DNA of 3,000 nucleotides from Escherichia coli (lineage in GTDB: Bacteria > Pseudomonadota > Gammaproteobacteria > Enterobacterales > Enterobacteriaceae): NCBI RefSeq assembly GCF_003334385.1, contig NZ_QOWN01000097.1, one strand, 5' to 3'. Under the pieces are notes generated by a model, which worked only from the letters and a program-made list of their open reading frames with translations, was not told where the DNA came from and ran no database searches. The position numbers and the translations under genes are program-made. Every line of letters starts with the position of its first letter. The first letter of the stretch is position 1. Positions 1-3,000 of this stretch are shown piece by piece.

Positions 1-3000
1 ACGCTGGCGCGGCTGTGGGGGGCGCTGCCGCCGGATATCCGGTTAAGCCCGCATCTTTACCTGGCGACCAACAGCGCACAGGGGCCGTGGTGGATACTGG
101 GGTGGTCTGAGCGGGTGCCGGGTGCTGAGGACGTACTGCCAGCGCCGCTGCCGCCGTACCGGGTGCTTACCGGGATGGCGGACCGCTTCGGGCGGACGCT
201 GACGTACCGGCGTGAGGCCGCCGGTGACCTGGCCGGGGAAATCACCGGCGTGACGGACGGTGCCGGGCGGGAGTTCCGTCTGGTGCTGACCACGCAGGCG
301 CAGCGTGCGGAAGAGGCCCGCACCTCTTCGCTATCTTCTTCTGACAGTTCCCGCCCTCTCTCAGCCTCAGCGTTCCCCGACACACTGCCCGGTACCGAAT
401 ACGGCCCCGACAGGGGTATCCGCCTTTCGGCGGTGTGGCTGATGCACGACCCGGCATACCCGGAGAGCCTGCCCGCTGCGCCACTGGTGCGGTACACGTA
501 TACGGAAGCCGGTGAACTGCTGGCGGTATATGACCGCAGCAATACGCAGGTGCGCGCTTTCACGTATGACGCGCAGCACCCGGGCCGGATGGTGGCGCAC
601 CGTTACGCGGGAAGGCCGGAGATGCGCTACCGCTACGACGATACGGGGCGGGTGGTGGAGCAACTGAACCCGGCAGGGTTAAGCTACCGCTATCTTTATG
701 AGCAGGACCGCATCACCGTCACCGACAGCCTGAACCGGCGTGAGGTGCTGCATACAGAAGGCGGGGCCGGGCTGAAACGGGTGGTGAAAAAAGAACTGGC
801 GGACGGCAGCGTCACGCGCAGCGGGTATGACGCGGCAGGAAGGCTCACGGCGCAGACGGACGCGGCGGGACGGAGGACAGAGTACGGTCTGAATGTGGTG
901 TCCGGCGATATCACGGACATCACCACACCGGACGGGCGGGAGACGAAATTTTACTATAACGACGGGAACCAGCTGACGGCGGTGGTGTACCCGGACGGGC
1001 TGGAGAGCCGCCGGGAATATGATGAACCGGGCAGGCTGGTATCGGAGACATCGCGCAGCGGGGAGACAGTACGCTACCGCTACGATGACGCGCACAGTGA
1101 GTTACCGGCGACGACAACGGATGCGACGGGCAGCACCCGGCAGATGACGTGGAGCCGCTACGGGCAGTTGCTGGCGTTCACTGACTGCTCGGGCTACCAG
1201 ACCCGCTATGAATACGACCGCTTCGGCCAGATGACGGCGGTCCACCGCGAGGAAGGCATCAGCCTTTACCGCCGCTATGACAACCGTGGCCGGTTAACCT
1301 CGGTGAAAGACGCACAGGGCCGTGAAACGCGGTATGAATACAACGCCGCAGGCGACCTGACTGCCGTTATCACCCCGGACGGCAACCGGAGCGAGACACA
1401 GTACGATGCGTGGGGAAAGGCGGTCAGCACCACGCAGGGCGGGCTGACGCGCAGTATGGAGTACGATGCTGCCGGACGTGTCATCAGCCTGACCAACGAG
1501 AACGGCAGCCACAGCGTCTTCAGTTACGATGCGCTGGACCGGCTGGTACAGCAGGGCGGCTTTGACGGGCGGACGCAACGTTATCATTATGACCTGACCG
1601 GAAAACTCACACAGAGTGAGGATGAGGGACTTGTCATCCTCTGGTACTACGATGAATCGGACCGTATCACTCACCGCACGGTGAACGGCGAACCGGCAGA
1701 GCAGTGGCAGTATGATGGCCACGGCTGGCTGACAGACATCAGCCACCTGAGCGAAGGCCACCGTGTTGCCGTCCACTATGGCTATGACGATAAAGGCCGC
1801 CTGACCGGCGAATGCCAGACGGTGGAGAACCCGGAGACGGGGGAACTGCTGTGGCAGCATGAGACGAAACACGCATACAACGAGCAGGGGCTGGCAAACC
1901 GCGTCACGCCGGACAGCCTGCCGCCGGTGGAGTGGCTGACGTATGGCAGCGGTTACCTGGCGGGAATGAAGCTGGGCGGGACGCCGCTGGTCGAGTATAC
2001 GCGGGACAGGCTGCACCGTGAGACGGTGCGCAGCTTCGGCAGCATGGCAGGCAGTAATGCCGCATACGAACTGACCAGCACATACACCCCCGCAGGCCAG
2101 TTACAGAGCCAGCACCTGAACAGCCTGGTATATGACCGTGACTACGGGTGGAGTGACAACGGCGACCTGGTGCGCATCAGCGGCCCGCGACAGACGCGGG
2201 AATACGGCTACAGCGCCACGGGCAGGCTGGAGAGTGTGCGCACCCTCGCACCAGACCTGGACATCCGCATCCCGTATGCCACGGACCCGGCGGGCAACCG
2301 GCTGCCGGACCCGGAGCTGCACCCGGACAGTACACTCACAGTGTGGCCGGATAACCGCATCGCGGAGGATGCGCACTATGTCTACCGCCACGATGAATAC
2401 GGCAGGCTGACGGAGAAGACGGACCGCATCCCGGCGGGTGTGATACGGACGGACGACGAGCGGACCCACCACTACCACTACGACAGCCAGCACCGCCTGG
2501 TGTTCTACACGCGGATACAGCATGGCGAGCCACTGGTCGAGAGCCGCTACCTCTACGACCCGCTGGGACGGCGAATGGCAAAACGGGTCTGGCGGCGGGA
2601 GCGTGACCTGACGGGGTGGATGTCGCTGTCGCGTAAACCGGAGGTGACGTGGTATGGCTGGGACGGAGACAGGCTGACGACGGTGCAGACTGACACCACA
2701 CGTATCCAGACGGTATACGAGCCGGGAAGCTTCACGCCGCTCATCCGGGTCGAGACAGAGAACGGCGAGCGGGAAAAAGCGCAGCGGCGCAGCCTGGCAG
2801 AGACGCTCCAGCAGGAAGGGAGTGAGAACGGCCACGGCGTGGTGTTCCCGGCTGAACTGGTGCGGCTGCTGGACAGGCTGGAGGAAGAAATCCGGGCAGA
2901 CCGCGTGAGCAGTGAAAGCCGGGCGTGGCTTGCGCAGTGCGGGCTGACGGTGGAGCAACTGGCCAGACAGGTGGAGCCGGAATACACACCGGCGCGAAAA
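1..3000 (+). CDS. Rhs family protein (RHS/YD-repeat polymorphic toxin core), internal fragment; both the start and the stop lie outside the window
   Basis: Frame +1 is uninterrupted by stop codons for all 1000 codons (my manual translation, line by line). The translation carries many copies of the Rhs/YD motif (Y-x-Y-D-x-x-G-R-L/V), e.g. [13 protein letters not shown] (nt 625-663), [12 protein letters not shown] (1207-1242), [13 protein letters not shown] (1267-1305), [10 protein letters not shown] (1582-1611), [12 protein letters not shown] (1777-1812), [14 protein letters not shown] (2377-2418), [12 protein letters not shown] (2548-2583). The window starts [20 protein letters not shown] and ends ...[15 protein letters not shown], with [26 protein letters not shown] at 2737-2814. 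GC content is high with GC-rich third positions, as known for Rhs cores. Paralog (rhsA/B/C/D-like) cannot be determined from the core alone, so the gene symbol is left empty. Confidence 0.95.
490..2694 (+). repeat. YD-repeat (RHS repeat) array at the protein level within the Rhs CDS; about 25-28 degenerate units of roughly 20-25 residues, not a nucleotide tandem repeat
   Basis: Recurring Y-x-Y-D / YD-x-x-G-R-L motifs in frame +1, at approximately aa 164-178, 189, 209-221, 229-238, 276-286, 318-326, 340-346, 359-362, 403-414, 423-435, 445-453, 468-473, 488-496, 509-516, 528-537, 549-556, 571-577, 593-604, 709-726, 735-745, 793-806, 825-836, 850-861 and 885-898. Unit boundaries are approximate and read by eye. 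Confidence 0.75.

Follow-up and report, generated by a model that had tools for sequence, protein, structure and literature searches.

The window analysed here is a stretch of 3,000 nucleotides (nt) from Escherichia coli (RefSeq assembly GCF_003334385.1, contig NZ_QOWN01000097.1) that lies within the gene rhsD. Nt 1..3000 on the plus strand are an internal piece of the rhsD coding sequence in frame +1, which has no stop across the 1000 codons of the window, and they encode RhsD amino acids (aa) 154-1153 of 1426. Residues are numbered below as window frame +1 codons unless marked as RhsD aa or as model residues. The original prediction described nt 490-2694 as a long YD-repeat array in which tight canonical units alternate with stretches that lack the motif, and it proposed those stretches as loops inserted into a beta-hairpin shell and as candidates for lineage-specific function. 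We consider it very probable that the window encodes the wall of the RhsD beta-cocoon, with a regular lattice in aa 164-603 and a diverged, conserved wall in aa 604-898. The window and its two regimes are as follows.

1..3000, plus strand: internal rhsD fragment, GC-rich Rhs 'core' (DNA identity, NF041261 score, GC content of 61-69%)
490..1809, plus strand (aa 164-603): regular YD-repeat regime, predicted as 20 hairpins and 40 strands with a period of about 21 aa (lag-21 autocorrelation, strand spacing in the AlphaFold2 model, RHS_repeat tiling)
1810..2694, plus strand (aa 604-898): irregular shell regime, predicted as 22 strands of uneven length and spacing, with landmark motifs (no periodicity, AlphaFold2 model, colinearity)

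The window matches rhsD of E. coli SCU-104 at 100% DNA identity and rhsD of many other strains at 99.9%, and RhsD of K-12 is 99.9% identical over the window. Of the 5,426 complete E. coli genomes searched, 3,859 contain a place covering at least 80% of the query, with a median of six matching places per genome with a match. The NCBIfam model RHS_core (NF041261) gives 2173.5 bits, above its curated equivalog cut-off of 2000, and window aa 1-1000 correspond to profile positions 154-1156 of 1261. The parts of RhsD outside the window are those of a type VI secretion system Rhs effector: the DUF6531 plug (PF20148) lies upstream at RhsD aa 46-123 (E=5.8e-18), PF03527 marks the RHS-associated core at RhsD aa 1155-1190, and the end of the core at RhsD aa 1231-1258 reads DPMGL-x17-DPMGL, which fits the aspartyl-protease motif DPXGX18DPXG. 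A variable toxin domain (PF14220/DUF4329) is carried by one member of the RhsD cluster, and the PAAR motif gave a weak match only (RhsD aa 3-20, E=0.28).

The YD array is real. TIGR01643 (YD_repeat_2x) matches it in seven stretches (E=5.9e-49), and the Pfam family RHS_repeat (PF05593) gives eight matches at E<=1e-3 and fifteen at E<=10. The peptides quoted in the original prediction are where it placed them: three tight units at aa 209-221 (nt 625-663), aa 593-604 (nt 1777-1812) and aa 793-806 (nt 2377-2418), and the 44-residue Pro/Asp-rich segment RTLAPDLD...NRIAED at aa 747-790. Tandem Repeats Finder detected no DNA-level tandem repeats in the window, so the array is a repeat at the protein level only. 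The repeat models do not tile it uniformly. RHS_repeat covers aa 167-603, and beyond this point there are two weak matches, at aa 717-747 (E=0.023) and aa 794-808 (E=4.3). The uneven spacing is thus genuine, in that the repeat hidden Markov models (HMMs) barely cover aa 604-898, but there is no alternation of repeats and gaps; the first 60% of the array is regular and the remaining 40% is irregular. Consistent with this, when the positions of aromatic, Gly, Asp/Asn and Arg/Lys residues were tested for autocorrelation against 500 shuffles, the regular part (aa 164-603) gave a peak of 0.205 at lag 21 that none of the shuffles reached. The irregular part (aa 604-898) behaved like the shuffles, 296 of the 500 reaching its value, and has no periodicity. 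An HMM of the YD unit that we built ourselves recovered about 25 units, including one at aa 618-636; it misses degenerate units and is used as supporting evidence only. The giant YD proteins (3-7 kaa) have repeated matches, which for most of these proteins are to the regular part alone. The regular part is a generic 21-residue hairpin lattice.

The structure of RhsD aa 60-1258 was predicted with AlphaFold2 (AF2) from an alignment of 37 sequences with 33-87% identity (A2), the homologues having been found by a search among 50%-representatives. Another homologue search gave only close Escherichia/Shigella relatives, too shallow a set for an analysis of conservation, and the alignment of these (A1) was not used. 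The model has a mean predicted local distance difference test score (pLDDT) of 86.3 and a predicted template modelling score of 0.79. In Foldseek its template modelling scores normalized to the target (TMt) are 0.87 to Tse5 of Pseudomonas aeruginosa (8CP6), 0.88 to the VgrG-Rhs protein of Advenella (8QJA) and 0.84 to RhsA of Pseudomonas protegens (7Q97). The prediction therefore agrees with the beta-hairpin shell proposed originally and suggests a closed cocoon. There are 79 strands from model residue 147 onward, and the strand array exceeds the noted ends of the feature, extending upstream as far as about aa 53 (nt 157) and downstream past aa 920. In the model, regular and irregular parts differ in strand length (5.8 +/- 1.1 versus 6.8 +/- 2.0 residues), loop length (4.9 +/- 1.4 versus 6.2 +/- 6.6, with a maximum of 34) and start-to-start spacing of strands (10.6 +/- 1.5 versus 13.1 +/- 6.6). 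The beta fraction is equal (0.545 and 0.539), and for this reason the irregular part is still taken to be shell wall.

The closest solved structure is that of Tse5 (phmmer E=1e-121 with the full protein; 30% identity over the structural match). It has the motifs WLTYG.G.L, RD.LHRE, Y.YDAAGNRL, WAGNRV and GWDGDR in common with RhsD. However, DAAGNRL and WAGNRV of Tse5 are separated by a loop of about 38 residues, compared with 13 in RhsD, and the N-terminal and toxin domains differ. The Tse5 shell is described as 40 hairpins with 'significant sequence variability' (PMC10684867), and a teneurin shell has 78 strands (PMC5851990). Three-layer beta-cocoons like the model are also formed by P. protegens RhsA (7Q97), Acinetobacter baumannii Tse15 (8UXT/8UY4), Advenella VgrG-Rhs (8QJA), Salmonella bongori Rhs (8QJB-D), Vibrio parahaemolyticus RhsP (8H8A/B) and Photorhabdus laumondii Rhs (7PQ5). 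Their TMt values to the model are 0.63-0.88 at 18-25% identity, and the irregular part is colinear in them with differences in loop length. The S. bongori protein has an elaboration of 80 residues (1120-1199) where RhsD has a 13-aa loop, and a loop of 4 residues where RhsD has a helical insertion. The TcB-TcC cocoons of Tc toxins and the teneurins have the spiral YD-repeat shell in common with RhsD but match the fold more weakly (query-normalized score, TMq, of 0.4-0.5 at 10-15% identity). The Tc shell consists of two chains and four turns, and teneurins have other plugs and a toxin-like domain outside the shell (PMC8765631, PMC5851990).

The original prediction named two segments without the YD motif. 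The first is nt 1804-1940 (gap A) and the second is the Pro/Asp-rich segment at nt 2239-2370 (aa 747-790, gap B). The features found in them are as follows.

1804..1941, plus strand (aa 602-647): gap A, degenerate hairpins with elongated strands (AF2 model, column occupancy, unit found by our own HMM)
2275..2304, plus strand (aa 759-768): YxxDPAGNRL motif at the start of the excursion in gap B (invariance in A2 and A3, occupancy 1.0)
2305..2343, plus strand (aa 769-781): variable loop of 13 residues (identity 0.10, occupancy 0.77, predicted coil with pLDDT 73-78)
2344..2361, plus strand (aa 782-787): WPDNRI motif at the close of the excursion (N785 and R786 at least 90% conserved; WAGNRV in Tse5)

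Gap A does not lack the motif, because it holds a recognizable YNxxGL unit of 19 residues, the one at aa 618-636 (E=4.5e-6 with our own HMM). In the model (pLDDT 88-93) its strands are 9, 11, 5 and 6 residues long, and the turns that connect them measure 5-6 residues. For gap A, column occupancy in distant homologues is 93%, an average of 1.9 residues is inserted and there are essentially no indels. Gap A is a set of three degenerate hairpins with long strands and not an insertion. Gap B opens with two strands and then makes a non-hairpin excursion, predicted as 34 aa of non-beta structure (aa 759-792, nt 2275-2376, pLDDT 73-85), and it is 87% occupied in distant homologues. The proposal of inserted loops accordingly fails for gap A and is borne out in part, by structure prediction, for gap B. 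The Pro/Asp segment is one conserved non-hairpin excursion in which only the 13 central residues are variable. Its counterparts lie roughly at residues 815-870 of Tse5 (8CP6), by pairwise alignment, and 1035-1065 of RhsA (7Q97).

Across the 37 sequences, only five shell columns are invariant: L743, D762, A764, G765 and N766. Four of these (all except L743) lie inside the Pro/Asp 'gap' motif, and the same four are invariant in a separate profile alignment of aa 730-900 (A3). Conservation of at least 90% is seen at Y648, G649 and G651 (YGSG), at R668, D669, L671, H672, R673, E674 and R677 (RDxLHRE..R), at N785 and R786 (WxDNRI) and at G886-G889 (GWDG). In addition to the motifs of the excursion, two landmarks stand out.

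1933..2031, plus strand (aa 645-677): WLTYGSGYL...RDRLHRE..R landmark (at least 90% conservation; motifs present in Tse5, RhsA, Advenella Rhs and Tse15)
2650..2676, plus strand (aa 884-892): WYGWDGDRL hairpin near the end of the array (G, W, D and G at least 90% conserved)

Pairwise alignments show the irregular part to be colinear with Tse5, RhsA, Advenella Rhs and Tse15, and at the YxxDPAGNRL motif the sequence in the solved homologues is D[PA]A[GAS]N. YenC2/TccC and teneurins 2-4 match the A3 profile at one specific site. A phmmer search of the PDB with the 92-aa Pro/Asp region alone gave no match, and a literature search for 'DPAGN' found no relevant paper. Judged from these alignments, YGSG, RDxLHRE, YxxDPAGNRL, WxDNRI and WYGWDGD are position-specific motifs common to the Rhs/TcC/teneurin superfamily.

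In distant homologues the columns of low occupancy coincide with predicted coil at aa 680-688, 769-781, 809-820 and 867-880. The loop at aa 769-781 has been listed above; the others are as follows.

2038..2064, plus strand (aa 680-688): RhsD-lineage loop GSMAGSNAA (occupancy 0.1-0.4 in distant homologues; predicted 9-residue coil, pLDDT 67)
2425..2460, plus strand (aa 809-820): enterobacterial-lineage loop (occupancy 0-0.3; predicted 12-residue coil, pLDDT 74)
2599..2640, plus strand (aa 867-880): enterobacterial-lineage loop of 14 residues (occupancy 0-0.5; predicted coil and one short strand, pLDDT 74)

The truly lineage-specific pieces are these three short loops of 9-14 aa. Within the first of them, the 7-aa SMAGSNA (aa 681-687, nt 2041-2061) is absent from RhsA/B/C and is the only indel among the paralogues within the array. 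The aa 769-781 loop is the main indel hot spot of the shell, where other sequences have on average 23.5 residues more. In nine of the 22 sequences aligned in A3 the loop takes a long form, which reaches about 55 aa and includes a DWxEEVRxxLxDPxFNxL module. This module, of about 40 aa, lies between DPAGNRL and WxDNRI in many distant Rhs cores and is missing from E. coli Rhs; no name for it was found in the Rhs structure literature surveyed. The published S. bongori structure has an enlarged loop at residues 1120-1199, of which residues 1141-1204 form four strands, and the Advenella protein is 'mostly a big loop' there (bioRxiv 10.1101/2024.02.26.582050). Because only the part of S. bongori Rhs from WxDNRI onward matches the A3 profile, this enlarged loop can be placed at the aa 769-781 site. 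E. coli has the short version of a known family-wide variable loop.

RhsA, RhsB and RhsC of K-12 are 75-77% identical to RhsD and colinear with it, with the same two regimes. RhsD differs from them in the 7-aa SMAGSNA, in the greater length of a Ser-rich stretch near aa 107-124 and in having another C-terminal toxin. Amino acid identity between RhsD and these paralogues is 75% in the regular part, 72-76% in gap A, 80-84% in gap B and 85-86% in aa 748-898. The synonymous codon difference among identical residues is flat over the segments (0.32-0.40), and is 0.36-0.37 in aa 748-898 compared with 0.32 in the regular part. Because synonymous divergence is flat while amino acid identity is higher, the extra conservation of aa 748-898 points, at the level of sequence comparison, to purifying selection and not to gene conversion. 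Gene conversion was considered as the source of this conservation and was ruled out by the same flat divergence.

These data bear on whether the irregular stretches could be lineage-specific insertions in a uniform shell, with functions particular to E. coli or to single Rhs paralogues, as the original prediction implied. Four short stretches are lineage-restricted, with low occupancy or identity and predicted coil (aa 680-688, found in RhsD only, and aa 769-781, 809-820 and 867-880), but together they amount to about 48 of the 295 residues, and RhsA/B/C have three of the four in identical or nearly identical form, so that these do not tell paralogues apart. The two named segments are well occupied in distant homologues and hold the most conserved motifs of the family, including four invariant columns in a segment whose profile extends to TcC and the teneurins. 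Additionally, the identity of the named gaps among paralogues (72-84%) is much like that of the canonical units (75%), and the comparison of gaps between Rhs paralogues that had been suggested shows the irregular part to be more conserved than the canonical repeats (86% versus 75%) at equal synonymous divergence. We therefore regard this explanation as quite improbable. Rhs genes are recombination hot spots, and the irregular part might instead be a recombination mosaic, acquired or homogenized apart from the regular repeats. The rise in identity to RhsA/B/C from 0.75 to 0.86 in aa 748-898 is what gene conversion could give. However, synonymous differences are not lower there, GC content is uniform through the core and proteins of Pseudomonas, Acinetobacter and Advenella show this architecture in colinear order, all of which makes a mosaic origin extremely unlikely.

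A third possibility concerns the excursion formed by YxxDPAGNRL, the loop and WxDNRI (nt 2275-2376), which might be a functional device of all YD shells such as a hinge, a gate, a contact or a docking site. No other part of the shell contains an invariant motif, and the excursion is predicted as non-hairpin and is conserved in position as far as TcC and the teneurins. In our sample the length of its centre varies between a few and about 55 residues, and in S. bongori it is about 80 (bioRxiv 10.1101/2024.02.26.582050); the long form has a recurrent conserved module. Equal conservation would, however, be expected for a wall turn that needs a special geometry, and no function or motif has been described for the excursion in the Rhs structure literature surveyed, so we consider such a device possible but rather unlikely. 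If it exists, the centre of the excursion would be an evolvable slot for modules that range in size from a few residues to about 80, with a role in shell closure or toxin release.

Taken together, the data favour a cocoon wall with a regular and a diverged part. In this model the YD repeats would fold as about 40 antiparallel hairpins, wound in a spiral that closes as a shell around the C-terminal toxin, and the DPxG aspartyl protease would cleave off the enclosed toxin, as described for the family, in which each hairpin is defined by a DxxGR turn and an inward-facing Tyr (PMC10684867, PMC8765631, PMC11461821). The irregular part may be constrained as a position-specific wall near the C-terminal closure, where hairpins would not be interchangeable. 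Several points weigh against this interpretation. The structure is a prediction from an alignment of 37 sequences, and encapsulation, cleavage and secretion of RhsD are proposed by analogy with the family. In a related Rhs protein AF2 is reported to draw a 'big loop' where the crystal structure has a strand (bioRxiv 10.1101/2024.02.26.582050), which suggests that part of the aa 759-792 excursion may be beta. Additionally, MAFFT alignments of repeat proteins may be displaced by one unit in the regular part, which would affect occupancy there more than in the landmark-rich irregular part.

The feature is ordinary and already known: rhsD, its YD repeats and the cocoon of Rhs proteins are in the textbooks, and the variability of hairpin sequence and of loop length has been stated with the published structures (PMC10684867, bioRxiv 10.1101/2024.02.26.582050). 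The present analysis provides a residue-level map of RhsD that consists of a generic 21-aa lattice, superfamily landmark motifs and a few indel-tolerant loops. The feature itself has little import beyond correct annotation, but the map would be of use in planning mutagenesis or the engineering of loops in Rhs containers. It also serves as a warning that regions missed by repeat HMMs are not necessarily non-repeat or lineage-specific.

Three further features of the predicted fold lie in the window on either side of the array.

157..294, plus strand (aa 53-98): first shell hairpins, four predicted strands (AF2 model residues 147-192; weak RHS_repeat match at aa 56-90, E=1.3)
295..417, plus strand (aa 99-139): predicted helix followed by a Ser-rich low-confidence loop, interrupting the N-terminal shell strands (AF2 helix at model residues 193-206; coil with pLDDT 55-68)
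2761..2979, plus strand (aa 921-993): insertion of five predicted helices that comes after the last shell strands and precedes the RHS-associated core (AF2 helices at model residues 1015-1082, pLDDT 63-87)

In the second of these the helix comprises 14 residues and the Ser-rich loop 17, and the loop differs from RhsA/B/C by a 5-aa indel and by sequence divergence. The five-helix segment is about 73 aa long and is rich in Glu, Arg and Leu. Alignments to the solved Rhs proteins end just before it, at PLIRVE. The identity of this segment between RhsD and RhsA/B/C is 70%, lower than in any other block of the core that the window covers. At this position S. bongori Rhs has a loop of four residues (1312-1315), reported to be larger in its counterparts from Pseudomonas and Photorhabdus (bioRxiv 10.1101/2024.02.26.582050), and in Tse15 there is an exterior loop that is disordered.

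The gene rhsD is flanked by ybbP and by ybbC (annotated as YbbC/YhhH family), the latter immediately downstream, where Rhs effectors of this type have an immunity gene, and a partial 'RHS repeat-associated core' pseudogene is annotated after ybbC. GC content is uniform at 61-69% in the core and falls sharply at 9000-9500 of the annotated locus (L001), just downstream of the window, where the C-terminal tip and orphan fragments have 32-35%. The GC break and the pseudogene are the classical core, tip and orphan arrangement of Rhs loci. Some E. coli proteins of 1571-1717 aa have an N-terminal VgrG (PF04717/PF05954) fused to a near-identical Rhs core (97-99% identity), so that this core occurs both on its own and linked to VgrG within the species. 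An Rfam scan of both strands of the window gave no match. Finally, the minus strand has two long open reading frames, at 2101-2958 (285 aa) and 1294-2016 (240 aa). Because they have no RefSeq annotation and fit the GC content of the core, they are probably composition artefacts of the kind expected in a coding region of about 65% GC.

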